Virus record (IMG/VR): IMGVR_UViG_3300045988_078326
Source of the DNA: a virus
Reading direction: 5' to 3' (one strand)
DNA: 64,000 bases
Both the position numbers and the translations under genes were made by a program. The notes below the pieces were generated by a model that saw only the letters and a list, made by a program, of their open reading frames with translations, was not told the DNA's origin and searched no databases. Shown piece after piece: positions 1-22,512 of the stretch; position 1 is the stretch's first letter; the number at the start of each line of letters is the position of its first letter.

Positions 1-3
1 TCC

Positions 4-32
4 TTGATTTTTTATCTATTTTATGATATAAT
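4..32 (+). promoter_or_regulatory. sigma-70-like promoter for the early operon
   Basis: -35 TTGATT at 4-9, 17-nt spacer, extended -10 TGaTATAAT at 24-32. It lies directly upstream of the first + strand gene. Confidence 0.5.
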
Positions 33-69
33 ATTTATATAAGATTGTTATGAAAGGAGAGCGTAATGT

Positions 70-603
70 ATGGCTAAGCACATGGTAAAATGTTTTTACT
101 GTGGAGAAGTATTTGATGCATCAACTACACCATACGTTAAACCAAATTCAAGACGTTACGCTCATAAGACCTGTGCGCAAACGGCCGAGGAAAATAAAAC
201 GCAAGAAGAAAAGGATAGACAACTATTAGAAAATTATATAAAGAAGTTATTTGGAATTAACTGTATTTCTCCAAAAATTAAAAAACAAATTGAAACCTTT
301 AGAAAAGATAATAATTATTCATATACTGGAATGTATAAAACTTTAAAATACTTTTTTGAGATAAAAGGTAATTCTATTGAAAAGGCTAATGGAGGAATAG
401 GAATAGTTCCTTTTGTCTATGATGAAGCATATCTTTATTGGAGAGCATTATGGGAAGCAAGAGAAAGAAATGAGCAAATAGATATAGGAAAGTTTATTTT
501 GCCTGTAAGAGAAGTCCATATAGAACCTCCTCAACGGCAACCAATGAAACATATACGAAAGCTATTTACTTTCTTAAATGAGGAGGAAGCGCATGAAGAG
601 TAA
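70..603 (+). CDS. N-terminal zinc-ribbon protein; possible replication-initiation or helicase-loading factor
   Basis: 177-aa ORF with an N-terminal CxxC...HxxC cluster. It is the first gene of the replication module and overlaps the dnaB-like start. The functional assignment is inferred. Confidence 0.35.
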   Translation: MAKHMVKCFYCGEVFDASTTPYVKPNSRRYAHKTCAQTAEENKTQEEKDRQLLENYIKKLFGINCISPKIKKQIETFRKDNNYSYTGMYKTLKYFFEIKGNSIEKANGGIGIVPFVYDEAYLYWRALWEARERNEQIDIGKFILPVREVHIEPPQRQPMKHIRKLFTFLNEEEAHEE

Positions 604-2131
604 TTATATAGATACAGCGGCGATTACTTAGGTAATTGGATGTGTATTCAATAATGCTTCTATTCTTGATGATACAGATAAGTATATAATTCATGAAGAT
701 GACTTCCAAGAAGATTTTCATAAGATAATTTTCGGTAGTATCTATAATATCCATCTAACAGGTAGTCAAGTTAATATAGACGCGATTATAGATTATCTAG
801 CAAACAGACCAAAGTTTGACGCCATATTTAAGCAAAACAAGGGTGTAGAATATCTCCTTGAAGCATCGCAAAATGCAAGGCAAGATACTTTTAATTATTA
901 TTATAATAGATTAAAGAAGTTTACTTTGTTAAGAGCATATAGCAATTTTGGTCTTGATGTTAGCTATCTTTATGATCCAAATAATATCCTCGATACCAAA
1001 AAACGCCAAATGCAAGAAGATTGGCTGGATAATACTAGCTTAGTTGAAATAGCTCATGCTATTGATACAAAAATAGATGAAATCAAAAGTAAGTACATAG
1101 AAGATGATCTTGGATTAGGCTATCAAGCCGGAGACGGAATCAATGAACTTATTAGTGATTTAGAACAGCATCCCGAAGTTGGTATTCCACTATATGGCCC
1201 GTTAATTAATACAGTAACAAGAGGAGCAAGATTGCGAAAATTTTATTTGCGGTCGGCGGCTACGGGAACCGGTAAAACTAGATCTATGATAGCGGATGCG
1301 TGTAATTTTGCGTGCAATGAAATCTATCATGACCAATTTGGATGGATTAAAAATGGAACCTCTCAACCAACTTTGTTTATTGCCACAGAGCAAGATAAAA
1401 GCGAAGTTCAAACAATGATGTTAGCTTTCCTATCTGACGTAGATGAAGAACATATCCTTAACGGTCAATACTTTGAGGGTGAAAAAGAGAGGGTGCTAAA
1501 GGCCGCAGAAATAATTAAACGCAGTCCAATTTGGATAGAAGAATTACCAGATTTTTCTTTACAAGATGTAGAGAATAAAATAAAAAAGAATATTAGAGAA
1601 AATGAAGTTAAATATGTTCTTTTCGACTATCTTCAAACGTCGCTTAAAATTCTTGAAGAAATTAGTAAGAAGTCTGGGGGAGTTAGATTAAGAGAGGATA
1701 ATATCTTATTTATGCTCTCCGCTAGATTGAAAGATTTAGCTAATAAATATGGTGTATTTATCATGTCTGCAACTCAATTAAACGCCGATTATTAGAGTAG
1801 TGAAACGCCAGATCAAAATCTATTAAGAGGCGCAAAAAGTATAGCCGATAGAATAGACGTTGGCATGATTCTACTAAGTGTTACAGATGAGGACTTAGTT
1901 AAGTTAGATCCAATACTAGAGGGTAACAAGAACTTATTGCGTCCGAATCTAAAATTATCTATCTATAAAAATAGACGAGGTTCGTACAAAGGAGTATATC
2001 TATGGTGTTCTGCTAACTTAGGAACTTGTAGAATTTTACCACAATTTTGTACTAATTGGAGACATGAGATGGTGGGCATTGAAGATATTCGAGTAATTGT
2101 CGATGAAGGGCCAGCAGCTTGGGAAAAATAA
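593..2131 (+). CDS. dnaB: DnaB-like replicative helicase
   Basis: ATG at 593 joins ORF fragments 926..1795 and 1865..2131 in one frame. In-frame TAGs sit at 629-631 and 1793-1795. The N-terminal domain reads ...IDYLANRPKFDAIFKQNKGVEYLLEAS..., and the Walker A is RSAATGTGKT. The C-terminal part is DnaB-like. Confidence 0.85.
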
Positions 2132-2322
2132 TGGAGGAATATATAATGAAGAATAGTCAAGGTTTAGAGTACAGAATGAGCAAGAAAATGTTTAATGAGC
2201 TTCTTTCAAGCAGAACAGAGGAAGAAAAGAAACAGAATCCTTATGTTTATGTGATACAAATTATCAATGAGCAATTTGGCTTGAAAGAAACAGTAAATAA
2301 AGTATCTTTCTATGATGCTTAA
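2119..2322 (+). CDS. hypothetical small protein
   Basis: 67-aa ORF with an RBS-like GGAGGAA upstream, sitting between the helicase and primase genes. Confidence 0.4.
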   Translation: MGKIMEEYIMKNSQGLEYRMSKKMFNELLSSRTEEEKKQNPYVYVIQIINEQFGLKETVNKVSFYDA

Positions 2323-2324
2323 TT

Positions 2325-3428
2325 ATGTCAAGATACTATGATAAAGATGAGTTAAAGAGTAAACTTGAATTAGAACAAATTTATGATTTACTCGAAGCGT
2401 GGGGTGGTGAGCCTGAATATGTAGATGGCGGGCTCATCTCCCAAACTATATGTCATAATCTTCCCGGTGAAGGATCAAGAAAGTTATATTATTACGAAAA
2501 TACAAAACTTTTTAGGTGCTATACTGGATGCATAGATCCTACTTTTGATATATTTGACCTATGTATAAAGGTTAAAAAAAAGCAAGAAGATAAGAAATGG
2601 GAATTGTATAATGCTATGGATTATATAGCAGGATACTTTGGCTTCAACGGAGTAGAATTAGAAGATGAAAAAGAAGAATTAGAAGATTGGGATATATTTA
2701 GAAGGCATAATATTCAACTTCCAAAGTCCAAACAACCTATTTCTTTGAAAGAATATAATCCAATTATTCTTACTCGTTTTGCCTATCCTAGAATTTCAGG
2801 ATGGGAAGCTGAGGGAATTTTACCAGAAGTTAATAGAAGAAATTTTATTGGTTACTATCCTGGCGGAGGGCAAATAACAATTCCTCATTTCGATATTGAT
2901 AATAGATTAGTTGGAATAAGAGGGAGAACATTATCTTCTGAGGATGCAGAAAGATATGGTAAATATAGACCTCTTATGGTAAATAGACAGTTATACAATC
3001 ATCCTTTGAGCATGAATTTGTATAATTTAAACCATAGTAAAGAAAATATAAAAAAGGTGAAAGCCGCAATTATATTTGAATCAGAAAAAAGCTGTCTTAT
3101 GTATCAGTCTTATTATGGGTATGATAATGATATATCTGTGGCTTGTTGCGGAAGTAGTGTATCTAGCTATCATATAGATTTACTTAGGTCTTTAGGAGTT
3201 AATGAAATTATAATTGCTTTTGATAGACAATTTGTTGAGATTAGCGATGATGAATTTAAGAGATTAAAAGCAAAACTAATTCATATTTATAATAAATATA
3301 GTAAAAATGTTCGTATATCAGCTATATTTGATAAAGGAATGATTTTGCCATATAAAGCAAGTCCTATAGATAGAGGGCCGCAAATCTTTGAGAAGCTATT
3401 AAACGAAAGGATAATCCCTTATGAGTAA
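2325..3428 (+). CDS. dnaG: DnaG-like DNA primase
   Basis: CHC2-type zinc finger CHNLPGEGSRKLYYYENTKLFRCYTGC, followed by a TOPRIM-like region (IIFESEKSCLM...IIAFDRQFVE). 367 aa. Confidence 0.75.
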   Translation: MSRYYDKDELKSKLELEQIYDLLEAWGGEPEYVDGGLISQTICHNLPGEGSRKLYYYENTKLFRCYTGCIDPTFDIFDLCIKVKKKQEDKKWELYNAMDYIAGYFGFNGVELEDEKEELEDWDIFRRHNIQLPKSKQPISLKEYNPIILTRFAYPRISGWEAEGILPEVNRRNFIGYYPGGGQITIPHFDIDNRLVGIRGRTLSSEDAERYGKYRPLMVNRQLYNHPLSMNLYNLNHSKENIKKVKAAIIFESEKSCLMYQSYYGYDNDISVACCGSSVSSYHIDLLRSLGVNEIIIAFDRQFVEISDDEFKRLKAKLIHIYNKYSKNVRISAIFDKGMILPYKASPIDRGPQIFEKLLNERIIPYE

Positions 3429-3705
3429 AGAAGTTCTAAACTTAGTACCTGCTATTAAATCAATAGAAAAAGAGCTAAATGAATTGGCGCAGAGATATAA
3501 TAAGAAAATTCAACCATATTTAGATAGTTTAGAAAAACTTAGAGAAATAAATCAAGCGTGTGAACATTGTAACGGTACAGGTCGTGTTCTAAGAAACAGA
3601 TCTTGCGCAGAGGATGATAGGCCAGACCCTAATGATCTAAGTGATTATATTAAATGTAGGGGCTGTAATGGAACAGGACTGGCGCATCAAAATAAAAGGG
3701 AGTGA
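3421..3705 (+). CDS. DnaJ-type zinc-finger protein
   Basis: 94 aa with two CxxCxGxG motifs (CEHCNGTGRV, CRGCNGTGLA). Confidence 0.5.
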   Translation: MSKEVLNLVPAIKSIEKELNELAQRYNKKIQPYLDSLEKLREINQACEHCNGTGRVLRNRSCAEDDRPDPNDLSDYIKCRGCNGTGLAHQNKRE

Positions 3706-3711
3706 TAAGGA

Positions 3712-5463
3712 TTGGAATATTCATTAATAAATCCAAGAAATTAGAATTATAGTGCTTTAGAGCAAGTATTAGTTAATAGGGGTATTTAGTATAATGATAT
3801 ATAGCATTATTTAACAGTATCAGAAAAAGATAATTTATCCCCCTTACTTCTCAATAACATTGAGGACGCTGCTAAATTAATTATTAAACATATTTTAAAG
3901 GACGATTCTTACATCTATATCTAGGTAGATAGCGACTGTGATGGATATACTTCTTCTGCGTTGTTATTAAACTACCTTCATGCACAATTTCCTTCGGCCA
4001 TTAACAAGTTTATTTATAACTTTCATTCTGGCAAGATTCATGGAATAAAACCAGAGTTAATCCCCGAAAATGTTTCACTTGTTATTGCGCCAGATTCTAG
4101 CTCCAATGATTATCAAGAGCATGAAGAACTAGCTAATCGCGGAATTGACGTACTGGTCATAGACCATCACTTAGCAGATAAAGTATCCGAATATGCCTGC
4201 GTTGTTAATAATCAGCTTTGCGATTATCCAACAAAATCATTATCTGGTGTAGGAGTAGTTTATAAGCTATGCCAATATATGGATAGTATTTGCGGAACCG
4301 CATATGCGGACGATTATCTTGATATTGTAGCAACTGGTCTTGTTGGAGACATGATGGATATTCGAGATTTTGAAACTCATTATCTTATCCAGTAGGGGCT
4401 ATAGAGATCGAGTCTCCGCAATCCATTTATTAAAGGTATGGCTGATAAAAATGTTTATTAGTTAGGGAAAGGAGATTTAACTCCTATAGGAGTAGCGTTC
4501 TATATTGTTCCTCTTGTTAATGCTATTACTCGTGTGGGTACTCAAGACGAAAAGTAGATTCTATTTGAAAGTATGCTTGAATGGAAAGCATATGATCTTA
4601 TTCCTTCTACTAAACGAGGATGTAAGGGACAAGAAGAAACAAGATTAGAACAAGCACTAAGAGTTTGTACTAATGTTAAAAATCGTTAGACTAGAACTAG
4701 AGATGCAGAAGTTGAATGTATAGAGAATATAATCTAGGAAAATAATCTTCTGGAGCATAAAGTTCTGGCAATTAAATTAGATAATATGTCTATTGATAGA
4801 GGTATTACTGGGTTAATTGCTAACGAGTTAATGAGTAAATATAAACGACCTGTAGTTCTTCTTTCTAAAACAGAGCATGAAGGATTGGAGGCTTGGGAAG
4901 GGTCTGCTAGAGGATATGAAAAATCTAAAATGAAAGACTTTAGATAGTTTGTTAAAGAATCAAACTTAGTATTCCTCGCCGAAGGACACGCCAATGCTTT
5001 CGGTTTTGGTATTTATGATAAAGATTTTGAAAGTTTTATTTCATGGTCAGATAAATAGCTAAAAGATATAGAATTTTCTCCAAGTTACAAGGTAGATTTT
5101 ATTTACTCTATGTCAGATATTAATTCTAAGGATATTCTCGATTTAGGCGATGCAAAATATCTTTGGGGTCAAAATATCGACGAGCCGCTTATCGCGGTGG
5201 AAAATGTTGCAGTAACAAATGATATGATTGGTCTCATGTCACGAGACAAGAATCCTACTTTGAAGATTCAATTACCAAATGGAGTTACTTGCATCAAGTT
5301 TAAATCAAGCGAAGAGGAGCTAGATAATTTATCTAGCGAATTAGGTTGCGTGAGTATAAATTTGATTGGTAAACCAGAAGTAAATAGATACTTCGGTAGT
5401 GTGACACCACAAATTATTATTACAGATTATGAAATTATAAGTAGATAGAAGTATTACTTTTAA
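3712..5463 (+). CDS. recJ: RecJ-like DHH-family single-strand DNA exonuclease
   Basis: Hand translation with TAG read as sense joins ORFs 3961..4395 and 5110..5448. DHH motif I is VDSDCDGYTSSALL, motif III is VLVIDHH, and a DHHA1-like EGHANAFGF follows. Several in-frame TAGs are present (for example 3745, 3787, 3802, 3922, 5056, 5446). Start at TTG 3712 or nearby; end at TAA 5461-5463. Confidence 0.65.
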
Positions 5464-5502
5464 TGATTGCGCAACCTCTTACTAAAGGAGGAAACAATCA
5501 CA

Positions 5503-6270
5503 ATGAGACGTTTTATGAGTATTATACTAAGTTTAATCATTTTATTATCTATAATATGTAGTTGCAATAGTCCTTTCATTTCTATTGCATCAGCATATTC
5601 AGTACCGTATAACAGCAGTATTAGTTATACCTATAATGATTTAGATACATTGGTTGAGCTTATTGCGGAACAAATCTCTAATATGAACGCCGCACATCAA
5701 ATGGCCGATGCTGCTAGACAGTTAGGCTATTCTGAAAATCATGATGTTATCGAACTAGCCGTGAATGAATATGATAAGGCGAATGAGCTAAGACAATCTT
5801 ATCAAGATGTATATGATAACCTCATGGAACATTGGCATCAAAAGGAAGAAGAGTACCCAGTGGCAACATATATTTGGAGCTATTTCAAAGACTTAGGTTA
5901 TAACGATCAAGTTTGTGCGGGCATACTTGGTAATATAATGACTGAAGTTGGTGGTAATACATTGAACATTCAATATGAATTAAGCAATTCTTCATATTAT
6001 GGAATGTGTCAGTGGAATAAAGCGTATTCTGAGGTTTGGGGAGCCTCATTAGAAGAGCAATGCAATTATTTGAAAAATACTATTGAATATGAATTTAATA
6101 CATTCGGTCACGCCTATAAGAAAGGGTTTGACTATAATGATTTTCTAAATATGACAAGTATAACTGATACCGCTTTGGCATTTGCGAAATGCTATGAGAG
6201 GTGTGGATCTGGAAGTTATACGACAAGACAAAATAATGCAATTATCGCGTATAATTATTTTGTAAGCTAA
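5503..6270 (+). CDS. secreted or membrane-anchored lysozyme-like protein (phage tail-lysozyme family-like)
   Basis: ATG 5503 has a strong RBS (AAGGAGG). N-terminal signal/TM is MRRFMSIILSLIILLSIICSC. A conserved block AGILGNIMTEVGG...YYGMCQWNKAYSEVWGAS resembles phage tail-lysozyme or glucosaminidase-like domains. Confidence 0.45.
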   Translation: MRRFMSIILSLIILLSIICSCNSPFISIASAYSVPYNSSISYTYNDLDTLVELIAEQISNMNAAHQMADAARQLGYSENHDVIELAVNEYDKANELRQSYQDVYDNLMEHWHQKEEEYPVATYIWSYFKDLGYNDQVCAGILGNIMTEVGGNTLNIQYELSNSSYYGMCQWNKAYSEVWGASLEEQCNYLKNTIEYEFNTFGHAYKKGFDYNDFLNMTSITDTALAFAKCYERCGSGSYTTRQNNAIIAYNYFVS

Positions 6271-6279
6271 AATAAATAT

Positions 6280-6315
6280 CTGCGGGCTGGCCGGAACCTA
6301 GACGACCGCCCGCAG
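6280..6315 (+). terminator. GC-rich stem-loop; putative terminator after the lysozyme-like gene
   Basis: ctgcgggc...gcccgcag is a perfect 8-bp GC stem with a 20-nt loop, conspicuous in an AT-rich genome. A T-run lies about 20 nt downstream, which is not classical spacing. Confidence 0.35.
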
Positions 6316-6380
6316 GAAACTAAAATGGCTTTAACTATTTTTTGAGGTAAAATCGTCGGTTACGCGGTTTTATAAAATTT

Positions 6381-6575
6381 TTGGACAAATCCTACGAATT
6401 ATACTATAATAATATTCAGATAAGATATAAGAAAATAGGAGGAATTATTATTATGGTAAATAAATGTGTTGTATGTGGGAAGGATTTTGAGGCCATAAAA
6501 TCCACAAAGAAATATTGCAGTAATGATTGCATGAATGCTGCCAGAAGAGCTAGATATGGAGAACGACAAATTTAG
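6381..6575 (+). CDS. small zinc-ribbon protein
   Basis: 64 aa with CVVCGK...CSNDC. Confidence 0.4.
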   Translation: MDKSYELYYNNIQIRYKKIGGIIIMVNKCVVCGKDFEAIKSTKKYCSNDCMNAARRARYGERQI

Positions 6576-6980
6576 ATGGTTACTAATTCAATGGATTTAC
6601 ATAATAAAAGCTGTCTTATTTGTGGGAAAGATTTTACGCCTAAAACCCCCGCCGCGAATAATCGTCAATGCTGTTATAATTGTATGCCAGATGGAGTTCA
6701 ACTAACTAGAGGAATGTTTCTAGCTAAAATAAAAGAGCACCTAGGTGGAAGATGTATAAAATGTGGATACGATAAATGTTTAAAAGCTCTAGAATTTCAT
6801 CATTTAGATCCCTCTAAAAAAGATTTTACTATTAGTAACGATCATTTTAAGTTAAAAGAAGCGGTTGAAGAAGTAAAAAAATGTATTTTAATATGTTCTA
6901 ATTGTCATAAAGAATTACATGATAATTTATGGACTATAGATGAACTAAATCTTGAAGAAAAGGAGGAAGTAGAACCATGA
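6576..6980 (+). CDS. HNH homing-type endonuclease
   Basis: Two Cys pairs and the HNH core (CIKCGYDKCLKALEFHHLDP...CSNCHKELH). Its stop overlaps the next start as ATGA. Confidence 0.7.
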   Translation: MVTNSMDLHNKSCLICGKDFTPKTPAANNRQCCYNCMPDGVQLTRGMFLAKIKEHLGGRCIKCGYDKCLKALEFHHLDPSKKDFTISNDHFKLKEAVEEVKKCILICSNCHKELHDNLWTIDELNLEEKEEVEP

Positions 6981-8157
6981 CTCTAACTAACATGCAAGAG
7001 CAAGGTTTGAAAATCGCTGTAGCCCGATACAAAGCTCATGAGCCCTATACTTGTATCGCTGGCTACGCCTGACCGGAACAGGGAAAAGCACCTTAATTAA
7101 ATTTATTGTGGCTGCTCTTAATATGTATGAGGAAGAGGTTGCTTATATCGCTTTTACTGGAAAGGCTTCAGAAGTACTGCGAGAAAAAGGGTGTCCTAAT
7201 GCTCAAACCGCGCATAGATTACTTTATTATAGTAAACAAATGCCTAATGGTAAGTTTGTTTATAAACCTCGGCCACATATTGAATATAGTCTTATTGTTG
7301 TAGACGAGGTATCTATGTTACCTATTGATATGTGGGAATTGTTACTTTCTCATGGAGTATATGTTATTGCTTGCGGCGACCCGTTCCAGTTGCCACCTGT
7401 AGACAAGACTAAAGAAAACCATATACTTGACAACCCGCATATTTTCTTAGATGAGGTAATGAGACAAGCTAAAGAAAGCGATATTATTGTTACAAGTATG
7501 AATATCAGAGAAGGCAAATCAATCGTTCCAATGCGAGGAAATGATACTCAAATATTTAGAAAACAAGAACTTGTAGCTGGGATGTACGGTTGGGCCGATG
7601 AAATTCTTGTTGCGACAAATAAGAATAGATTTGATATAAATTAGTTTATGAGACTTGATGCCGGAAGAAGCTCAGAACCAGAAAGAGACGATAAAGTTAT
7701 TTGTCTAAGAAATACGTGGGATATTTGTTCTGTTAAAGATGAAAACCCTCTTATCAACGGCACAATAGGTTACTTAAAAGATTTCTCTCTAGTTACTATG
7801 CAGTACAAAACTCTTACTGAATCTTTTACGGCTCAAATACTTCTTTCTAGTATTGAGACAACCTCTGGAGACACCTATCTTGATGTTCCTATTGATTATA
7901 ATTCGCTTTTAACAGGTAAGAAAACTTTTACTCCACAGCAAGAATATTATCTTAATAAAAGAAAGGATAATCCACCTCTCCCAATAGAGTTTAACTATGG
8001 GTACGCAATCACTACTCATAGAGCCTAGGGTTCACAATGGGACAATGTATTGGTTATAGAGGAAAATTTTCCTTTCGATAAAGAAGAGCATGCTAGATGG
8101 CTTTATACCGCCTGCACTAGAGCAGCAAAGAAACTAACATTGATTTTAAAGAAATAA
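6977..8157 (+). CDS. dda: Dda/RecD-like SF1B DNA helicase, frame-disrupted inside the Walker A motif
   Basis: N-terminus MTLTNMQEQGLKIAVARYKAHEPYTCIAGYA resembles the T4 Dda start and runs into TGA at 7070-7072. Frame -1 continues as LTGTGKSTLIKFIVAAL... through ORF 7051..7644. In-frame TAGs at 7642-7644 and 8026-8028 continue to TAA at 8155-8157. Motif V reads THRA(TAG)GSQ, matching HKSQGS, and motif VI reads YTACTRAAKKL. Confidence 0.7.
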
Positions 8158-8199
8158 TATAGTATAATATATTATATAGTAATATAAGAGAGGTATAAT

Positions 8200-11100
8200 A
8201 TGAGTTACTTTAACAATCATTCGCATACGGAGTTTAGTAACTTGCGTTTGCTTGACTGTATAAATAAACCAGAAGAGCTGATTGATAAAGCTATTGAAGT
8301 TGGATTAACGGGAATAGCTATCACGGACCACGAATCTCTCTCCGCGCATATGAGAGTAAATAAATATGCGAAAAAAATCAAAGAAACTAATCCCAGTTTT
8401 GTTATAGCTCTTGGTAATGAAATCTATCTTACAGATACTAGAGATTTAGGACAAAGATACTATCACTTTATCTTAATTGCTAAAGACGAAATTGGTTATA
8501 GGGGACTAAAGGAGTTATCTTCTATCGCCTGGATGAATGGTTATTATGATAGAAGAATGGAAAGAGTTCCTTTGCTTAAATCAGAATTAAAAGATGTAAT
8601 GCAGAGATTTAAAGGGCATATTATTGGCACTACTGCTTGTATTGGCGGTGAATTAGGTCAATCCATTTTAAATCTAAATAATTGTGAAGAAATAAAAGAT
8701 GAAGTAAACGCAAAGCGTTATCATCAACAGATTGTAGATTTTATTACTTTCTGTATAGATGTATTTGGTCAAGATGATTTTTATATTGAGTGCGCACCAG
8801 CGTCATATCCTGACCAGATTATTGCAAATAAAAGAATGTTAAAAATTGCAGAAGCGTTCTCTGTTAATATGTGTATCGGCACAGATGCCCACTATCTAAC
8901 AAAAGAAGATAGATATGTCCATAAAGCATATTTAAATTCTAAGGGCGGAGAAAGAGAAGTCGATAGCTTCTATGAATTTACTCGTCTTATGGACGAAACT
9001 GAAACTAGAGAATTACTTCGTTTGAGCTATGAAGATAATATTATTGATTGGATTTTTAATTGCTCAAACGAGATTAAAGATAAAATAGAATTTTACTCTC
9101 TGGAAAAGCATCAGTCTATTCCAGAAGTAGAAGTAACTGATTACCCTCCTACTGCATGGTGGGGAACTAACAATGATTATGCAGATGAAATGTCTAAGTA
9201 TCCAATCCTAAAATCACTTTTCACTTCCGATAATATTCAAGAGCGTTATTGGATAAATGAATGCTGGAAAGCGCTAGAAGCAAAAGGTATTGATTGGATT
9301 GATAGACCAGAATATCCAGAAAGACTTGAAGAAGAAGCAAGAGTAAAGAGAGTGATTGGAGAGAAATTACAAACTTGTATGTTCGCTTATCCAAATACAT
9401 TAAAACACTATGTTGATTTGTTTTGGGATTGCGGAAGTACGGTAGGTGCGGGTCGAGGTTCGGCTTGTGCAGCTCTTAATCATTATCTTCTTGGAATTAC
9501 TCAGCTGGATCCAATCGAATGGGATCTTCCTTTCTGGAGATATATCAATGACAAAAGAACAGAACTTGGAGATATTGATTTGGACTTGGCTCCATCTAAG
9601 ATTCAAAAAATCTTTGCTGAAATCAGAAAAGAACGAGGAGAATTAGGGCTAGTCCAAGTATGTACCTTCGGAACTGAGGGAACTAAATCTGCCATATTGA
9701 CAGCCTGTAGAGGTTATAGATCTGACGATTATCCAGAAGGTATTGATGTTGATATGGCTCAATATATGAGTTCCCTAATTCCGCAGGAAAGAGGCTTCTT
9801 GTGGCCCATTGAGGACGTCGTTAATGGAAACCCAGAAAAGGGACGTAAAGCAGTTACTACATTTGTAAATACTGTAAATCAATATCCCGGTCTTCTAGAT
9901 ATTATTACTAGAATTCAAGGGCTTGTAAATAAACGTTCTAGTCATGCATCCGGCGTTATTTTGTTTGATGAAAATATTTTCGACAGTGCCGCAGTTATGA
10001 GAACACCAAAGGGTGCATTAATTACTCAATGGGATTTGCATGACCAAGAGGCTGCTGGTTCTGTTAAGTATGACTTTCTCTTAACAGCAGTTCAAGATAT
10101 TATTATCCAAGCTGTTGAATTACTACAAGAAGATGGAGTTATCGAAAAAGATTTAACTTTAAGAGAAGTATATAATAAATATCTTCATCCATCTGTCTTG
10201 CCTCAAGATGATAAAAAAATGTGGGATGCTTTAGCTAATGGTGATGTTCTTGGATGTTTCCAATTTGACTCAAGCGTTGGTGCACAAGCCGCGAAGAAGA
10301 TTAAACCTCAAAATCCGCATGAGATGGCTGACGCGAATGGATTGATGCGCCTAATGACTTCCGAAAAAGGTGCTGAAACTCCAATGGAGAAGTATGTTCG
10401 ATTTAAGAATAATATTTCTCTTTGGTATCAAGAAATGGACAGAGAAGGATTAACAAAAGAAGAACAAAGGATTCTCGAACCGCATTTCTTACGTTCTTAT
10501 GGTGTTCCTCCTAGCCAAGAACAAATGATGACCATGTTACAAGACGAGAATATCTGCGGATTTACTCTTGAAGAAGCGAATGCTGCAAGAAAAATTGTTG
10601 GTAAAAAGCAAATGAATAAAATCCCAGAACTTAAAGAAAAGGTCTTAAACTCTGCGAAATCTCCCGCGTTAGGACATTATGTCTGGACTTATGGCATCGG
10701 CCCGCAAATGGGTTATTCGTTCAGTATTATCCATGCTCTTGCTTATAGTTTTGTTGGTATGCAAACTCTGTATCTTGCTACTCATTTTAATCCGGTATAT
10801 TGGAATACGGCGTATCTGATTGTAAATAGTGGTGCTATTGATGAAGAAGAAGGAGAACAATCAGATTATACAAAGATTGCAAAAGCAATAGGAGAAATTC
10901 GTAATGCAGGAATTAAGGTTTCCCTTGTGGATATTAATAATTCTGACTTTGGATTTAAGCCAGATGTAAAAAATAACTAGATTCTTTTCGGATTAAAGGG
11001 TTTGTCAAATGTTAATAATGAACTGATAAAAACTATTGTAGATAATCGACCCTATGTATCTCTTGTTGATTTCTATAACAGAGTTCATCCTAATAAACAA

Positions 11101-12102
11101 GCAATGATTTCTTTAATTAAAGGTGGAGGATTCGACCAGTTTAGTTCACGTATGGAGGCTATGATTCAATATATATGGATTACCTGCGATAAGAAAAAGA
11201 GAATTACTTTACAAAACCTTCCTGGGTTAATGAGATATGATCTTATCCCCTATGAAGAAAAGTTTGTGATGCCGAAAAGAGTGTATGAATTTAATAGGTA
11301 TCTAAAAGCAGAGTGTAAAGATCCTTACAATGTAGCAAAATATAAACTCGACGAAAGAGCAATCACCTTTCTCGTTGAAATTGATTGCGAGGATCTATTG
11401 GAAACAGATAATCTAGCATGGTATATTGACATAAAAGCCTGGGATAAAATTTATCAAAGTTACATGGACGTATTTAGAAATTGGATCTCTGAAAATAAAG
11501 AAACGATTTTAGATAATTTAAACACCACCATCTTTATGGAAGATTGGAAAAAGTATGCTTCAGGGAACATATCTTCTTGGGAAATGGAATCTCTATGTTT
11601 TTATTATCACGACCATGAGCTAGCGAATATTAACAATAGCAAATATGGATTTGTAGACTTCTTTAGCCTTCCAGAAGAACCTCAAGTAGATAAAGTATTT
11701 AAAAAAGGTGCTTCTTTAATTCCTATTTATAAACTGCATAAAATCTGCGGGACGTGCATTGCAAAAAATAAGGTGAAGAGTACTGTATATCTTCTTACAA
11801 CAACTGGAGTAGTAGCAGTTAAATTCAGACAAGAATACTTTGCTTTGTTTGATAAACAAACCTTCCAAAGAAACGCAGATGGAACAAAGAGAGTTGTAGA
11901 GAAGTCTTGGTTTAATAGAGGTAATATGATTGTTGTGCAAGGGATTAGACGAGGCGATGAATTTGTAACAAAGAAATATGCAAGTTCTGGAGGCCATCAA
12001 CTTTATCACATTGATGAAATTATCAATGGAACAGATCTAATCTTGAGAAGCGAAAGAAAACAAGGAGAAGATGAAGATGAAGATAGTAGCATTAATGGGT
12101 GA
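8200..12102 (+). CDS. dnaE: DNA polymerase III alpha subunit (DnaE-type), about 1300 aa
   Basis: ORF 8200..10980 has a PHP domain at the N-terminus, plus a polymerase core. It ends at TAG 10978-10980, and the same frame continues as ORF 11002..12102, which encodes the HhH/OB C-terminal region (ILFGLKGLSNVNNELIKTIVDNRPYVSLVDFYNRV...LIKGGGFDQF). It is therefore one gene with a sense TAG. Confidence 0.85.
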
Positions 12103-12622
12103 AGCAGGAAGCGGTAAGGATACTATTCTCCATAGAATTATGGAGAAGTATCCTTCCTATTTCAATGAAATTATTAGTTGTACGACTCGACCTCCTAGGC
12201 AGGGAGAGAAAGAAGGAGTTAATTATCACTTCTTATCCGTTGAAGATTTTATTAGAAAAATCTTAAATGGAGATATGCTAGAGGCTACTGAATTTAATGG
12301 TTGGCACTATGGAACAGATAGTCAAAGTCTAACAATAGATAAGATAAATATAGGAGTATTTAATCCAGAAGGAGTTAGATGCTTACAGGAAGATGAAAAC
12401 ATTGAACTGTATGTATTTTATGTGCGGGCCGCGGGTAAGTAGCGTCTTTTAAGATAGCTGAATAGAGAAGAAAATCCTGATGTAGACGAAATAATTAGAA
12501 GATACAAAGCGGATACAGAAGATTTTAGTTTTCTTAATGATATAAAATATATAACTCTTTAGAACAATACCTTAGATGATATTGATATAGCTGTTGATAC
12601 TATATTTGGACAATTCTATTAA
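12071..12622 (+). CDS. gmk: guanylate kinase-like nucleoside-monophosphate kinase
   Basis: P-loop GEAGSGKDT and motif SCTTRPPRQGEKEGVNYHF. The frame continues through three TAGs (12440, 12452, 12560) to TAA 12620-12622, giving a typical guanylate-kinase C-terminus. Confidence 0.65.
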
Positions 12623-12679
12623 ATAATTATATTAGAAATCACAATATATAGTGTTCAACAAAAAATATATTACAAGGAG

Positions 12680-14869
12680 TTGTATTATATGTTACAAATA
12701 AAGAAAAGAAATGGTATAGTAGTTCCATTTGATAGAGAACGAATTATCAACGCTATCAATAAAGCCTTCATCGAAGTAGATGGAGAATTATATGAAGATG
12801 ATACTGCAAATGATATTGCAGATGAAATTAAGTATGCAGTAAAAACTTCTGACGATGTGGTTTCTGTAGAAAAAATTCAAGACATGGTGGAAGATTTTCT
12901 TATGAAGTCTGAGCGGAGAGACGTTGCTAAAGCATACATTAGATATAGATATAAAAGAGAAATTGCCAGAAAAGGGCAAGACGATTTTATGAAAGCCTTT
13001 TCTGCCAAAGTGCAGGGTTCAGATATAGAGAATCAAAATGCTAATGTTGATGAAATGTCATTCGGCGGAAGAGTTGGTGCAGCTTCTGATTTGCAAATGA
13101 AGAAGTACGCTCTTGATTATCTTGTATCTAATAAATCACGCGCAAACCATGAGAATAATGAGATTTATATTCATGACTTAAATGCTTATGCAGTAGGTAT
13201 GCATAACTGTCTTTCTATTCCTTTTGATGATTTGCTTGCAAAAGGATTCAATACAAGACAAACTGATGTACGACCAGCGGGTTCAGTAAATACAGCTTTT
13301 CAACTTGTTGCTGTAATCTTTCAGCTTCAAAGTTTACAGCAGTTTGGTGGCGTTTCTGCTACACATCTTGATTGGACTATGATTCCTTATGTAAGAAAAA
13401 GTTTCTATAAACATTATATGGATGGATTGACATATATCGAACAAGTCATTAGCATGGATGATAGATTAAATAATCAACTGTCTATTGAAGATCCTATCTA
13501 TAAGGAATTTAAAGGCGCATATTCATATGCTATCGCTATGACAGAAAAGGAAGTTCATCAAGCGGTTGAGGGAATGTATCATAATCTAAATACTCTTCAA
13601 TCTCGTTCCGGCAATCAACTTCCATTTACTTCTATTAACTATGGAACTTGTACTCTTCCAGAAGGAAGAATGGTTACTAAAGCTCTTCTGGAAGTCTCTA
13701 TTGAAGGACTTGGTAGACTTCACAAGACTTCAATTTTCCCCTGTGGAATTTTCCAATGTATGAAAGGTGTAAATAGGAAGCCTGGAGATCCAAATTACGA
13801 TTTATTTAGATTAGCATTAAAGTCTACTGCCACTAGATTATATCCTAATTATGCTAATGTAGATTGGTCTGGCAATGCCGGATATGATGTAAACGATCCA
13901 AGTACATATTTCTCTACAATGGGATGTAGAACTGCTAATGGATTCGATATTAACGGCTTAAAGCAACAGAAAGACGGTAGAGGAAATATCTGTCCTGTTA
14001 CTATTATAATGCCAACAATAGCAATGGAAGCTAATGGTGACGTAGAAACTTTTATGAAACTTTTAGATATTAAGATCGAAGAAGCGAAAGATATGCTTCT
14101 TGAAAGATTTGAATATATCTGTGCGCAACCTGCGGATTCGGCAAAATTCATGTATGAAAATGGCTTAATGGCTGGATATGATGGAATTTCTACTCGAAGT
14201 GCTTTACAACATGGCACATTGAGTCTTGGGCAGATTGGATTGGCAGAAACTTTACAAATTCTTATTGGATGTGATCATACTGAGCCAGAGGGCATGAAAT
14301 TAGCAAAAAGAATAGAGCAGTTATTTAAAGATAGATGCGCAGAGTATAAAGAAAAATATAGACTTAATTTCGGAGTATATTATACTCCAGCCGAGAATCT
14401 TTGCTATACCTCTCTTAAAAAATTCCGTGATAAGTATGGTATCATTCCTAATGTAAGCGATAGAGAGTTCTTTACTAATTCTATGCACGTACCAGTATGG
14501 CACCAACTCTCTCCATTTGATAAAATTGATATTGAAAGTCAATTAACTGGATATTCTTCTGCTGGTTGTATTACTTATGTTGAGTTAGATACTGGCATGG
14601 AAAAGAATATTGATGCTATGGAGACATTAGTAAATTATGCTATGGATAAAGATATTCCATACTTTGCAATAAATGTTCCATGTGACACCTGCCTAAATTG
14701 CGGATATACTGGCGAGTTTAATGATAAGTGCCCTCAGTGCGGTAGTAAAGAAATTCAACAGTTAAGAAGGGTAACAGGCTATCTAACTGGTAACTACAAG
14801 ACCGCCTTTAATAAAGGAAAGCAGGATGAAGTAAACAATAGAGTTAAACATGTGGGGTATATGGAATGA
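12680..14869 (+). CDS. nrdD: anaerobic ribonucleoside-triphosphate reductase NrdD (class III)
   Basis: 729 aa with an N-terminal ATP-cone. The C-terminal zinc ribbon is CDTCLNCGYTGEFNDKCPQCGS, and the glycyl-radical motif is RRVTGYL. The real start is probably ATG 12689 after an AAGGAG RBS. No TAG codons. Confidence 0.85.
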   Translation: MYYMLQIKKRNGIVVPFDRERIINAINKAFIEVDGELYEDDTANDIADEIKYAVKTSDDVVSVEKIQDMVEDFLMKSERRDVAKAYIRYRYKREIARKGQDDFMKAFSAKVQGSDIENQNANVDEMSFGGRVGAASDLQMKKYALDYLVSNKSRANHENNEIYIHDLNAYAVGMHNCLSIPFDDLLAKGFNTRQTDVRPAGSVNTAFQLVAVIFQLQSLQQFGGVSATHLDWTMIPYVRKSFYKHYMDGLTYIEQVISMDDRLNNQLSIEDPIYKEFKGAYSYAIAMTEKEVHQAVEGMYHNLNTLQSRSGNQLPFTSINYGTCTLPEGRMVTKALLEVSIEGLGRLHKTSIFPCGIFQCMKGVNRKPGDPNYDLFRLALKSTATRLYPNYANVDWSGNAGYDVNDPSTYFSTMGCRTANGFDINGLKQQKDGRGNICPVTIIMPTIAMEANGDVETFMKLLDIKIEEAKDMLLERFEYICAQPADSAKFMYENGLMAGYDGISTRSALQHGTLSLGQIGLAETLQILIGCDHTEPEGMKLAKRIEQLFKDRCAEYKEKYRLNFGVYYTPAENLCYTSLKKFRDKYGIIPNVSDREFFTNSMHVPVWHQLSPFDKIDIESQLTGYSSAGCITYVELDTGMEKNIDAMETLVNYAMDKDIPYFAINVPCDTCLNCGYTGEFNDKCPQCGSKEIQQLRRVTGYLTGNYKTAFNKGKQDEVNNRVKHVGYME

Positions 14870-15339
14870 AGTATGCAGGTATTATAAAAAATGACTTTGC
14901 TGCTGCTCCCGGAGTATCCTTGAGTTTCTTTACTCAAGGATGCCCCCATAGATGTAAAGGGTGTCATAATCAAGAGACTTGGGATTTTGATAGTGGCAGA
15001 GAATTTACTCATGAAACTCTTAATTCAATCTTAGAAGGGCTAACTGCTAATGGAATTAAGAGAACTTTATGTATAATGGGCGGCGAACCATTATGTCCAG
15101 AAAATACATTTTTAACCCATCTAGTAATACAAACCGCAAAGGAGACAATTCCTGATTTGAAGGTTTATCTATGGACTGGATACTTGTATGAAGATTTAAG
15201 AAAAACAACAGATACAGTTATTTAGAATATACTTCAATTAACTGATGTGCTAATTGATGGGCCATATATTGAAAATGAAAGAGATATTACAGAGCCTCTA
15301 AGGGGTAGTCGTAATTAGAAGATAATCTACCTAAAATGA
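14866..15339 (+). CDS. nrdG: anaerobic RNR activating enzyme NrdG (radical SAM)
   Basis: CPHRCKGCHNQ (CxxxCxxC). The frame continues through TAGs at 15223 and 15319 to TGA 15337-15339, giving the conserved C-terminus ...LIDGPYIENERDITEPLRGSRNQKIIYLK. Confidence 0.8.
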
Positions 15340-15368
15340 TTTTCGTAAAAAGTATTTTTGGAGGAATA

Positions 15369-15878
15369 ATGATAGCAATAGCAAGCTATATCTATTTGTC
15401 TGTTGGTGGTATAGTTGGAGCTATTATGTTTTCCATTGGTTTATTAACCATACTAAATATGTAGTTTAAGTTGTTTACTGGTTCAGTTGGTTATATCAAG
15501 AGCAAAAATGATATAAAAGACAATCTTATTATTTTATCAGGAAATATCATTGGAGCGTGCGGGATTTTAGCTTTTCCGCACGCAGCAGCTCTATCTTTGG
15601 TCTCTGCTAAGATTGCAGTTCCGCTATATCTAGTTTTCCTAAAAGGAATTGTTTGTGGTATATTTATATATTCGGCAGTATCTTCATTTAAGAGAAATAA
15701 AGATTATATGGTGCCAGTTTGTGTAACAGGCTTTATATTATTCGGTGGAGAACATTGCATTGCCGATCTTTGTTATGCCTTGGCCGCTGGTGTGCTTTCT
15801 ATTGATATAATATTATTTCTAATAGTAGTTACATTGGGTAATTCTATAGGAGCAATAATTGTTGACAGAATACAATAA
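15369..15878 (+). CDS. short formate/nitrite transporter (FNT)-like membrane protein
   Basis: ATG 15369, with TAG at 15462. FNT-like blocks are LNMQFKLFTGS (compare LFTGN), NLIILSGNIIGA and FGGEHCIADLCYA (compare EHsIANmf). About 5 TM helices. It appears N-terminally truncated relative to FocA-type channels. Confidence 0.45.
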
Positions 15879-15914
15879 TTATGATATTATATTAAAAGAA
15901 AAGGAGGGCTAGAT

Positions 15915-16259
15915 ATGACTTTATATGAGTTAAATCAAGCTGGATATGCTTCTCTTCCAAAAATGACAAAAGCCGAGCTAGATACGGCTAAAGAAGATAT
16001 TATCACATTTTTAAAATCTCACAACTCACAATATTACATGATGCTTAATCATGATAATAAATACTTCACTTTATTTGTTTATGAAAATAATATAGACGTA
16101 GAAAAAATGGCACGTGAGATTATCTCAGTCTCCAAGTCTCTTGGAGAAATTAAATCAATAGAAGTAAATGGAGATATTATAGAAATTTGGATTCTATATG
16201 AAGGCAAATGTGATATGTACGCATTTTTCGACTATGCAAAAGGGGTGATACAAGTATGA
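15915..16259 (+). CDS. hypothetical protein
   Basis: 114-aa ORF with RBS AAGGAGGG, intact in the standard code. Confidence 0.45.
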   Translation: MTLYELNQAGYASLPKMTKAELDTAKEDIITFLKSHNSQYYMMLNHDNKYFTLFVYENNIDVEKMAREIISVSKSLGEIKSIEVNGDIIEIWILYEGKCDMYAFFDYAKGVIQV

Positions 16260-16522
16260 CAAATAGCATTATTGTTAATTATGATCCATTCGCGATGGAA
16301 TCTACTGTATATATCCTAGAAGATGGATTGCAAAAACAAATGAAAGTATGCTCTGATATTAACGGCCTGGCGGAAACTCTGGTTGGACTTTCTTACGGAA
16401 ACAATATATATAGCATACTAATTCATGCCCCTCTTGCAATTACAGGGGAAATAAAGAATTTTGTGCGAGATTTAGAAGCAAGTATGTATTCAAATAATAA
16501 AATTACAGTTGAGGGAATTTAA
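16256..16522 (+). CDS. hypothetical protein
   Basis: 88-aa ORF overlapping its neighbours by 4 nt. Confidence 0.4.
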   Translation: MTNSIIVNYDPFAMESTVYILEDGLQKQMKVCSDINGLAETLVGLSYGNNIYSILIHAPLAITGEIKNFVRDLEASMYSNNKITVEGI

Positions 16523-16766
16523 TATGGTTTATAATTTAAAGTCTACAAATACTTATAGAGTGCCAACCGTAGAAGATGCACTTAGACTGCGGAAATGGCT
16601 AGAAAAGACGGCAGTAGGAGAGTTAACCTCATTTAAATATGCTACTAAGTATATTAAGCAAAAGGGAGAAATAATTGAGGAGTATCAACTCGTTACTGCT
16701 ACAATGACTATCGACAATGAAAAAGAACCAGAAGGCGTTATGCCAATTACTATTACGGAGGAATAA
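16509..16766 (+). CDS. hypothetical protein
   Basis: 85-aa ORF. Confidence 0.4.
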   Translation: MREFNMVYNLKSTNTYRVPTVEDALRLRKWLEKTAVGELTSFKYATKYIKQKGEIIEEYQLVTATMTIDNEKEPEGVMPITITEE

Positions 16767-16767
16767 T

Positions 16768-17334
16768 ATGAGCGTATATTTCGAGAAAGTAAGTCGTTTT
16801 AATGACATTGATCTACCTATACCAACTCGCGCAACCGCAAATTCCGCAGGCTATGATTTTGTAGTTGCAGAAGATGTCGTTCTTCCTCCAATGAATTTTT
16901 TAACTTCTAAGATTCAAGATCATGTTTTTGAAAAAAATGCTGACAAGGATTTTTATGGGTTCGTAGACCCATTTACTCTTGATGATATGGCTAATCTTAC
17001 TAAAGAATTAAAATCCAAGATTACGCTAGTATCAACAGGAATGAAATGTCATTTAAATCCTGGGCAGTATTTAGAATTAAGCGTCCGCAGTTCTACTCCT
17101 CTTAAACACTGGATTATTTGCGGGAATAGCGTAGGTATTATTGATGCTGACTATTGCGATAATCCCGATAATGAAGGAGAGATTTTCTTTCAACTCGTTA
17201 ATCTATCTCCTTTTGCTATCCAACTGAAGCGAGGAGATAAGATTGGTCAAGGTATTATTAAAAGCTATGGGATTACAGATAATGATGCTGCGACTGGAGA
17301 AAGACTTGGCGGATTTGGAAGCACTTCTGTATGA
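16768..17334 (+). CDS. dut: dUTPase / dCTP-deaminase superfamily protein
   Basis: ATG 16768 after ACGGAGGAATAAT. Motifs ANSAGYDF and GIIDADYCDNPDNEGEIFFQLVN...GDKIGQGII match dUTPase motifs. Confidence 0.6.
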   Translation: MSVYFEKVSRFNDIDLPIPTRATANSAGYDFVVAEDVVLPPMNFLTSKIQDHVFEKNADKDFYGFVDPFTLDDMANLTKELKSKITLVSTGMKCHLNPGQYLELSVRSSTPLKHWIICGNSVGIIDADYCDNPDNEGEIFFQLVNLSPFAIQLKRGDKIGQGIIKSYGITDNDAATGERLGGFGSTSV

Positions 17335-17810
17335 GTAATTTATTATCATTAGACTAGAGCTCCAGAATCACGGGGTACGCGGTCTTTGAAGATAATAAGT
17401 TAAAAACATTTGGTAAATTTGTTGTCGAAGATAGTAATATAGATACTAGATTAGTAAAGATAAGACAAAAGATAAAAGATCTTATTATCTAGTTTAATAT
17501 AGATGAAGTCGTTTTTGAAGATATACAATAGCAAAATAATGTATCTAATAATGTATAGACCTTTAAAATTTTAGCGGAGGTCTATGGAGTTATTTCCGAA
17601 TTATTAGAAGAAGAGAAAATACCTCATTCAACGATTTTATCTACTTCATGGAAATCTCTTCTTGGGATAAAGGGTCGCACTAGACCAGAATAGAAAAAAA
17701 ATGCCCAGGATTATGTGTTAAATAACTATGGTACAAAACCAACTCAAGATGAAAGTGATGCGGTTTGTATCGGCCTTGCGCATATAAAATAGAATTAGTG
17801 CGCTTGGTAA
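17331..17810 (+). CDS. ruvC: RuvC-like Holliday-junction resolvase
   Basis: The ATGA overlap with dut gives the start. Translation with TAG as sense gives MSNLLSLD(Q)SSRITGYAVFEDNK...DESDAVCIGLAHIK..., with RuvC N- and C-terminal catalytic motifs. At least eight in-frame TAGs. Ends at TAA 17808-17810. Confidence 0.65.
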
Positions 17811-17824
17811 TTGGTCCAAATAAA

Positions 17825-17879
17825 AAAATCCTCCTTTCTTAACTTTAAAATACTTTGAGAAGTTAAGAAAGGAGGATTT
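17825..17879 (+). promoter_or_regulatory. 20-bp perfect inverted repeat sequestering the RBS of the downstream gene; terminator-like
   Basis: aaatcctcctttcttaactt (17825-17844), a 15-nt loop, then aagttaagaaaggaggattt (17860-17879). The right arm contains AGGAGG one nucleotide before ATG 17881. Confidence 0.55.
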
Positions 17880-17880
17880 T

Positions 17881-18312
17881 ATGTTTACATTTATAGCAGA
17901 ACATATAGTAGAAATTCTGTTTGGTCTAATTTCCGCAGGTGCTTTGGCTTTTTGTAGATATTTATATAAACAATTAATAGCTTACAAAAAGATGTTACAA
18001 GAGAAAGAGAATGATGATATAGCTGAATTGATTGACGAAAAGTTGAAACCTGTAGTAGAAGATATTGAAGAACTTCGAAGATATATACGGAGGATTGAAA
18101 ACAAAGAAAATCAAGACTTGACCTTAATTATAGCTTCGTATAGATTTCGACTTGTTCAACTGTGTAAAATATATATCAAACAAGGATATATGACGCAAGA
18201 TCAATATGACCAGTTAACAGAATTTTATAAACTCTATACCTCTCTTGGCGGAAACGGTTAGGCGAAAGAATATTACGAAAAAGCGATTGAGTTAGAAATT
18301 AAATCTGTATAA
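17881..18312 (+). CDS. membrane-anchored coiled-coil protein
   Basis: 126-aa ORF with an N-terminal TM and coiled coil. It continues through TAG 18259-18261 to TAA 18310-18312 (...GGNGQAKEYYEKAIELEIKSV). Confidence 0.45.
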
Positions 18313-18313
18313 T

Positions 18314-18348
18314 AAAAAAAATGGGGAACTCTTAATTGAGTTCCCCAT
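18314..18348 (-). terminator. bidirectional rho-independent terminator at the convergence of the + early and - late units
   Basis: Perfect 11-bp inverted repeat atggggaactc / gagttccccat with a 6-nt loop. It is flanked by an A7 run, which reads as U7 on the minus strand. It overlaps the stop codon of the minus-strand gene. Confidence 0.6.
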
Positions 18349-19253: not shown

Positions 19254-19303
19254 AATTAAGCCACCCTTTCAATAATTAGATTTGCGTTTTGGACGTCGAT
19301 TGC

Positions 19304-19678: not shown

Positions 19679-19707
19679 TGAACCAAATCTCTCCTTTTAA
19701 TTTCTAA

Positions 19708-20613: not shown

Positions 20614-20637
20614 TTAAGTTCCTCCTTTAAGAAAATA

Positions 20638-20871: not shown

Positions 20872-20883
20872 TTTATCGACTCC

Positions 20884-21309: not shown

Positions 21310-21357
21310 AGTTTTACCTCCTTTAAAATATTCCCTTGGCCTTTCATTATTATATGA

Positions 21358-21407: not shown

Positions 21408-21416
21408 AGTGTAAAA

Positions 21417-21924: not shown

Positions 21925-22512
<588 letters not shown>

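Follow-up and report, generated by a model that had tools for sequence, protein, structure and literature searches.

Glutamine as the probable meaning of in-frame TAG codons in an SPbeta-like gut phage

When a TAG triplet falls inside a conserved motif of a phage helicase, does it end the protein or does it specify an amino acid, and if so, which one? The question is raised by a helicase gene in a 64,000-nucleotide stretch of viral DNA (IMG/VR record IMGVR_UViG_3300045988_078326; the whole of this stretch is hereafter termed the window). The body of this gene, taken as a stop-to-stop frame at 7042..8157 (+), codes for a RecD/Dda/Pif1-like helicase of superfamily 1B (SF1B) and carries in-frame TAGs at 7642-7644 and 8026-8028. 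A first reading of the letters made without database searches (the sequence-only reading) had placed a helicase TAG at a conserved glutamine and had proposed that TAG is read as Gln in this phage. From the comparisons described below we consider it very probable (about 0.92) that genetic code 15 operates in this phage, with TAG as a codon for glutamine. The pattern of in-frame TAGs itself is real and far beyond chance.

TAG as a sense codon across the window

The codon usage of the window was analyzed on a set of 52 defined open reading frames (ORFs) over positions 1..64000. All 52 end in TAA (40 ORFs) or TGA (12 ORFs) and none ends in TAG, and 334 in-frame TAGs are spread over 40 of them. If these are counted as glutamine codons, TAG accounts for 38% of the inferred Gln codons of the window, next to 410 CAA and 127 CAG. 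The coverage by ORFs of at least 100 codons, both strands summed, is 36,237 nt under the standard code, 44,667 nt when TGA is taken as sense and 77,802 nt when TAG is taken as sense, and the longest ORF of the window grows from 931 to 2905 codons once TAG is read as sense. In alignments to relatives the in-frame stops are TAG in 2300 cases, TAA in 34 and TGA in 10. Same-frame homology runs on across both sides of 301 TAGs, and the same TAGs were found again in independent assemblies from many samples.

The TAGs are not evenly distributed. They are dense in the tail, baseplate, portal and lysis genes and sparse in the genes for DnaE, NrdD and DnaB, with the densest use in the late tail and baseplate block (29414..57594, -), where the gene for the 2841-aa tape measure protein contains 99 of them. 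Most tail and baseplate genes have a TAG/(TAG+CAA+CAG) ratio between 0.4 and 0.79, and DnaE, NrdD, DnaB and the helicase lie between 0 and 0.15; the small-gene blocks that flank the window, read in sister contigs, are nearly TAG-free. Hence, TAG is enriched in late genes and scarce in early ones, and the exceptions are the genes for the major capsid (58687..59739) and the tail tube (53550..54944). These two, together with three other late genes (59759..60448, 58089..58625 and 51462..51992), carry no TAG at all, whereas their neighbours use it at 40-79% of the Gln positions. The absence of TAG from these genes fits a suppression that is costly or incomplete.

A small Gln/Pro/Tyr-rich late protein (20884..21309, -) had already drawn attention for its TAGs within runs of glutamine. 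It opens with MAVNYPYYMPQQ(TAG)QP(TAG)Y and contains 8 in-frame TAGs, three of which fall in columns that are 77-95% Gln in relatives.

The residue opposite TAG in the helicase and in other proteins

The helicase was compared with all chains of the Protein Data Bank (PDB) by phmmer. It matched the Deinococcus radiodurans RecD2 protein (3e1s, E 1.2e-16, two aligned stretches), a putative deoxyribonuclease (9kwf, E 5.5e-14) and T4 Dda (3upu, E 1.9e-5). Pfam searches with the same gene in contigs of the same species returned AAA_19, AAA_30 and UvrD_C_2, to which PIF1 was added on an intact 391-aa form. A Walker A sequence, TGTGKST, lies near the start of the body, and the SF1B motifs were all found (GTGKST, DEVSM, THRA(TAG)GSQW and YTACTRA). 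By similarity across both RecA-like domains, the product of 7042..8157 is predicted to be an SF1B helicase of the RecD/Dda/Pif1 type.

Around the second TAG the translation reads EFNYGYAITTHRA-TAG-GSQWDNVLVIEE and, farther on, LYTACTRAAKKLTL. The segment G-Y-A-I-T-T-H-R-A-(TAG)-G-S-Q-W (7999..8040, +), which we take to be motif V of the SF1B helicases (a literature text search for HKSQG returned no citable paper for the motif numbering), pairs with GYALTVHRAQGSEW of RecD2 (HRAQGSEW, within residues 488-533 of 3e1s) and with HKAQGS of 9kwf. Because the helicase stretch aligns with this motif of RecD2 and 9kwf, the TAG at 8026-8028 (+) stands opposite the conserved Gln of T-H-(K/R)-(A/S)-Q-G-S, which is where the sequence-only reading had put it (positions 8020-8034). 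In 12 database protein homologues this column is an invariant Q, and the columns of the motif segment are invariant too. At the DNA level, all 65 of the 65 aligned related loci carry a Gln codon opposite the TAG (CAA in 56, CAG in 9), and the bases across 8027-8029 are identical in six assemblies of the same species. The first TAG of the gene (7642-7644, +) falls in a variable column, where relatives have N 29, T 11, Q 8, S 5, R 4 and K 3 times, besides other residues; of the two, only the TAG at 8026-8028 would therefore be informative.

To extend the comparison to the other genes, 339 loci around relatives of several window proteins (from IMG/VR, metagenomes and, from GenBank, the phage phAss-1) were fetched as DNA and translated with TAG shown as a stop, the window proteins were aligned to them by tblastn, and the codon opposite every window codon was recorded. 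All counts were taken from DNA codons and not from database protein homologues, because the gene calls of the public protein collection (P0001-P0003; L313-L339) read through TAG. Near-identical proteins in that collection give Q at both helicase TAGs; since the Q in entries such as P0001 could be circular, database homologues were dropped as stand-alone evidence.

Of the 334 TAGs, 301 could be aligned to relatives, and in 282 cases a sense residue was found opposite in a relative of another species. With these 282 columns weighted equally, the residues opposite TAG are Q (0.397), K (0.106) and E (0.088). Gln is thus about 10-fold enriched at TAG columns (40% vs 3.9% in the background), and it rises to 79% in relatives of at least 80% identity. 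In 25 of the 36 TAG columns where at least 80% of the relatives agree, the residue agreed upon is Gln.

A likelihood test in the manner of Codetta was also performed. Empirical substitution profiles for the 20 amino acids were learned from the same alignments and fitted to the TAG columns. Gln leads the runner-up, Lys, by 279 nats with all hits, by 94 nats with hits of <70% identity and by 60 nats with hits of <50% identity. It was the best residue in 1000 of 1000 column bootstraps in all three identity bins, and no set of relatives tested gave it fewer than 999 wins in 1000. With ten loci that lack any in-frame stop, and are hence independent of recoding, Gln leads by 30 nats and is again best in 1000 of 1000 bootstraps. 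Both approaches that the sequence-only reading had suggested, the tabulation of residues opposite TAG in conserved proteins and the codon-inference test, therefore give Gln, in every identity bin and in relatives free of in-frame stops.

Could glutamine appear opposite TAG simply because CAG is one mutational step away? The codons found opposite TAG are CAA (0.208), CAG (0.083), AAG (0.030), GAG (0.020), TAT and TAC together (0.011), TCG (0.003), TTG (0.002) and TGG (0). A mere neighbour effect was rejected, since CAA, two steps from TAG, is 2.5 times as frequent as CAG, and the other one-step neighbours are rare. The CAA:CAG ratio opposite TAG (2.5:1) is close to that of the relatives overall (1.75:1). 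The contrary outcomes named in the sequence-only reading, an alignment of TAG with no preferred residue or preferentially with Trp, Tyr or another residue, were not seen.

Three further comparisons were made. In the reverse test, at columns where the relatives carry an in-frame TAG, the window has TAG in 27% and Gln in 24%. The composition over 7007 columns was set against relatives of near-standard code, which have 3.94% Gln; CAA and CAG make up 3.18% in the window and 3.92% when TAG is added, so that TAG fills the shortfall of Gln codons exactly. Finally, among assemblies 98.7 to 99.7% identical to the window we observed seven TAG polymorphisms, of which six exchange TAG with CAG or CAA and one with GAA. 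Alignment of other TAG-bearing enzymes to the PDB added little: a guanylate-kinase-like protein aligned only loosely at its TAGs, and a RuvC-like protein had no match.

A tRNA with a CUA anticodon and its charging

No tRNA gene was detected in the 64-kb window by ARAGORN (standard and permissive modes) or Rfam, and none in about 115 kb of sister IMG/VR contigs around it. A metagenome scan of sister types revealed a cluster of tRNA-Ser(UGA), tRNA(CUA), tRNA-Leu(CAA) and tRNA-Cys(GCA). In the species of the window the tRNA(CUA) gene lies on contig ERZ28625867 scaffold_7 (L335:3227-3301), about 35 kb upstream of the first base of the window. The cluster was tied to this species via overlapping loci and exact-protein look-ups that chain GyrB, Thg1 and a nucleotidyltransferase. 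One linking locus, L330, matches the window at 99.85% and L313 at 99.97% identity; a second, L332, is 100% identical to L313 and 99.95% to L330; and L335 is on the same contig as L313, L322 and L323.

The tRNA(CUA) gene is 75 nt long, with an encoded CCA end, and its sequence is identical in five other assemblies. It matches the Rfam model RF00005 end to end with 61.6 bits (threshold 29), and in a sister type a T-stem pair of the tRNA(CUA) has changed from G-C to C-G, a compensatory exchange. The molecule has an unpaired U1/U72, a G73 discriminator, the anticodon loop CUCUAAA, a D-loop of 8 nt and a normal variable loop. With the phAss-1 suppressor Sup2 (tRNA-Sup-CTA) it shares 85% identity. 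ARAGORN prints 'tRNA-Pyl' for it, the label that this program gives by default to a CUA anticodon. A tRNA-Pyl has a short D-loop, a 3-nt variable loop and a long anticodon stem, and is accompanied by pylS and pylBCD. The label was rejected, since the fold is that of an ordinary class I cloverleaf, with the D-loop and variable loop described above, and the sequence fits the general tRNA model from end to end.

The sequence-only reading had regarded glutamine as the usual outcome of decoding by a tRNA with a CUA anticodon. Such a tRNA does exist in the same species, outside the window, but Gln does not follow automatically from the anticodon: amber suppressors insert whatever residue the tRNA body specifies. 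In Escherichia coli the identity set of glutaminyl-tRNA synthetase (GlnRS) comprises G73, a weak or open 1-72 pair, G2-C71, G3-C70, G10, U35 and G36. Judged by these rules, the tRNA(CUA) has G73, the unpaired U1/U72, G2-C71, G10 and U35, and differs in having C3-G70 and A36; the latter is unavoidable because the anticodon is CUA. The tRNA(CUA) shows how UAG is read, and alone it does not prove which amino acid is attached. As its body is not clearly Gln-like, the assignment of the amino acid rests on the alignments and not on the tRNA.

Several points weigh against glutamine, or at least against glutamine alone. The tRNA(CUA) is 54% identical to the tRNA-Gln(CUG) of the lineage and 60-64% to the tRNA-Gln genes of phAss-1, compared with 68% to the phAss-1 tRNA-Trp, and its body does not appear clearly Gln-type. 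Among the genes listed for the parts of the genome covered (all but roughly 20 to 25 kb), no release-factor or tRNA-synthetase Pfam domain was found. Many Bacillota lack GlnRS and make Gln-tRNA by transamidation, which would bear on the route of charging. In the alignments, some conserved TAG columns hold K, S, N or E, mostly in sets of 9 or 10 near-duplicate loci, and conservation is lower at TAG columns than at columns of ordinary Gln codons (Q 0.36 vs 0.57). Alignments also report on how selection treats the codon and not on the residue put in at each translation event, and for this phage the assignment is made by comparison of DNA.

The surroundings of the tRNA genes were also inspected. 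Next to the cluster (L335:2479-4193) are a gene for a DUF2828/DUF7788 protein and one for an 811-aa protein with major-vault-protein shoulder and Vault_3 Pfam hits; a vault-like protein is unusual in a phage. Farther along are genes for an RlaP-like nucleotidyltransferase, an RNA ligase, a Thg1-like tRNA-His guanylyltransferase and an AAA_33 kinase, and an NAD-salvage set. Relatives about 59% identical in the nucleotidyltransferase (L277, L279, L281, L285, L289, L292, L298, L299 and L302) have the Ser(UGA), Leu(CAA), Cys(GCA) cluster without the CUA tRNA. A related sister group, which may or may not comprise the same contigs, has in-frame TAGs, about 4 per 1000 aligned residues, and the suppressor of these CUA-less relatives may be elsewhere or missing. 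Other tRNAs with a CUA anticodon, in phAss-1 (L133:12442-12532) and at L255:1662-1753, are of a different type from the 75-nt one: they are 91-92 nt long and have a long variable arm like that of the tRNAs for Ser, Leu or Tyr.

Alternative explanations, the source phage and known recoded phages

Under code 15, the tRNA(CUA) would be made during infection, would be charged with Gln by a host enzyme and would outcompete the host release factor 1 (RF1) at UAG. With UAG thus read, the late genes rich in TAG (tail, baseplate, portal and lysis) and some replication genes could be translated, and TAG-free genes would be translatable in the unmodified host. Regulation of this kind has been proposed for other recoded phages. 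The tRNA(CUA) gene itself lies within a TAG-free small-gene block upstream of the window. A minor share of other residues at TAG is possible.

The alternative that survives best is that decoding is ambiguous or timed, i.e., that TAG acts as a stop through host RF1 early in infection or in part of the events, and as Gln when the phage tRNA is abundant. We regard this as a tentative possibility. The TAG-free state of abundant virion genes, the major capsid, the tail tube and three more, amid neighbours with 40-79% TAG is what one would expect if suppression were costly or incomplete, and the flanking small-gene blocks are almost TAG-free as well; late-gene regulation by suppression, with the same timing, has been proposed for recoded phages (bioRxiv 10.1101/2021.08.26.457843). 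A gene of 2841 codons with 99 TAGs, however, yields a full-length protein only if read-through at each codon is near complete, and the efficiency of suppression cannot be measured from a nucleotide sequence. Decoding of this kind would give a mix of truncated and full-length products; it refines the code-15 explanation and does not replace it.

It is unlikely, in our view, that TAG is not purely Gln and that a mixture of residues stands at TAG through some uncommon way of charging the tRNA(CUA) (mischarging with later transamidation, or a non-cognate synthetase). This was considered because the tRNA(CUA) is not a recent copy of a tRNA-Gln, as judged by its unpaired U1/U72 and its Trp-like anticodon arm, and because Bacillota often lack GlnRS. 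With a residue mixture, the complete absence of TAG from the most abundant virion proteins would be accounted for.

That TAG is sense but stands for another residue altogether (Lys or Glu, Trp, or pyrrolysine) is very improbable. Lys and Glu are second and third opposite TAG, but they occur there about as often as opposite ordinary Gln codons, and they fall behind Q by 60 to 309 nats. For Trp, the anticodon stem-loop of phAss-1 Sup2, the suppressor that the tRNA(CUA) of the window species resembles, differs from that of the phAss-1 tRNA-Trp(CCA) only at the middle anticodon base; nevertheless, TGG is never found opposite TAG. Pyrrolysine has the ARAGORN label in its favour, and against it stand the ordinary cloverleaf of the tRNA, unlike that of tRNA-Pyl, and the finding of no pyl-related Pfam family in the gene lists of the parts covered of this partly covered genome. 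The exact filling of the Gln-codon shortfall by TAG also speaks against any other residue. Last, the explanation that the TAGs are real stops, in a degraded phage or through assembly or sequencing errors, could draw on the heavy fragmentation of the window under the standard code and on the frame disruption that the helicase does carry, but it is effectively refuted by the in-frame homology across 301 TAGs, the excess of TAG among in-frame stops, the recurrence of the same TAGs in independent assemblies of many samples, the spread of the proteins over 1158 to 2358 blocks of the protein collection and the presence of a matching tRNA(CUA) in the species.

As to the source of the DNA, contig ena:ERZ28625867 scaffold_7 (147,169 bp) is 99.0 to 99.4% identical to the window over three stretches (about 52 kb in all). 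The genes of same-species contigs gave Pfam hits to YonB (capsid), YonD, YomU_Tube, YomV, YomW and PhageMin_Tail, from which the window phage is assigned to SPbeta-like tailed phages, with a predicted genome of roughly 147 kb; the SPbeta-like genes suggest that its host group is likely Bacillota. The phage is very common in human gut assemblies, where exact-protein look-ups find single window proteins indexed in 1158 to 2358 collection blocks. Megablast of window positions 5000-25000 against GenBank phages returned no match, and phAss-1 was reached by protein-level search only.

The helicase frame is not uninterrupted. An N-terminal piece of 31 codons (6977..7072, +; ATG at 6977, TGA at 7070-7072) is out of frame with the part from Walker A onward, and a 5-nt insertion (about 7069-7073) before Walker A splits it from the body. 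Five same-species assemblies have the insertion. L318, otherwise 99.5% identical, lacks both it and the HNH ORF described next and has the intact 391-aa helicase; over the first ~95 nt of the gene there are many differences from L318. Directly upstream of the helicase gene is an HNH-endonuclease-like ORF (6453..6980, +), and the ORF, the insertion and the divergent flank together look like a homing-endonuclease cassette with a co-converted flank. A helicase relative of 69% identity, P0008, begins with MYLWLRLAGSGKT, in agreement with the shifted-frame reading. Because of this match, expression of the split form may begin at an alternative start. The HNH-like ORF has a single in-frame TAG, immediately followed by ATG (6574-6579, +), and both of its halves open with zinc-ribbon motifs of similar sequence (C-x-x-C-G-K-x-F). 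Here TAG might genuinely end the first of two small genes instead of coding for Gln.

Elsewhere, the window contains a diversity-generating retroelement (24397-28176, +). It consists of a reverse transcriptase gene (27052..28176, +; Pfam RVT_1) with 6 in-frame TAGs, a template repeat (about 26642-26750, +) and a variable repeat (25919-26027, +) at the 3' end of a Big_3/DUF6273 gene (24397..26034); the mismatches between the repeats are all at template adenines.

The UAG decoding proposed here resembles that of the classical E. coli suppressors supE, a tRNA-Gln with a CUA anticodon, and su7, a tRNA-Trp with a CUA anticodon that is charged mostly with Gln; recognition by GlnRS is favoured by U35, G73 and a weak 1-72 pair. 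In both systems a CUA tRNA competes with RF1 at UAG and inserts Gln, as would the phage tRNA, which has U35, G73 and the unpaired U1/U72. The bacterial suppressors give partial read-through of rare nonsense mutations, whereas in the window TAG is routine, at 38% of the Gln codons, and lies in essential genes.

The nearest described phage is phAss-1, of the proposed genus Phassvirus (Babkin et al. 2023; GenBank OQ749652; PMC10607447), which NCBI files under 'Caudoviricetes code 15 clade' and whose major capsid protein is 51% identical to that of the window. There, TAG was read as Gln from terminase alignments, tRNAscan-SE gave Gln for the tRNA-SUP-CTA gene analysed, and three tRNA-Sup-CTA genes and no dedicated aminoacyl-tRNA synthetase were reported (PMC10607447). 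phAss-1 resembles the window phage in its source, the human gut, in being tailed, in its size (136 kb) and in the presence of TAG within virion and DNA-metabolism genes, and it shares with the window species NAD-salvage genes, an anaerobic ribonucleotide reductase and ThyX. It differs in being a distant relative with a rearranged gene order. Of its 36 tRNAs three are suppressors, two of them directly beside nrdD; in the window no tRNA adjoins nrdD, and in the window species one suppressor was found, within the four-tRNA cluster.

The likeness extends to code-15 crAss-like and other recoded gut phages (Yutin 2021, PMC7886860; Borges et al., bioRxiv 10.1101/2021.08.26.457843; Peters 2022, PMC9523058). 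In these, too, TAG is recoded to Gln, is concentrated in structural and lysis genes and varies in replication genes; the phages encode a suppressor tRNA, their hosts are thought to use the standard code, and Gln was deduced by the same alignment logic, TAG aligning best with Gln in the survey of Borges et al. They differ in lineage, the crAss-like phages being Crassvirales and the window phage having SPbeta-like structural genes (YonB, YonD, YomU, YomV and YomW). Moreover, in crAss-like phages Gln at TAG has been confirmed by metaproteomics (Peters 2022, PMC9523058), whereas for the window phage it is deduced from DNA.

Gut phages that recode TAG to Gln (genetic code 15) are well documented, and the window phage adds another case. 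What is known of recoding is unchanged by it. We conclude that: i) the phage needs translation table 15 for its annotation, since otherwise about three quarters of its genes look shattered; ii) the identity of the amino acid is recoverable with high confidence by DNA-level comparison; and iii) an SPbeta-like lineage with very heavy use of TAG, at 38% of the Gln codons and with 99 TAGs in one gene, is added to the phages of code 15.

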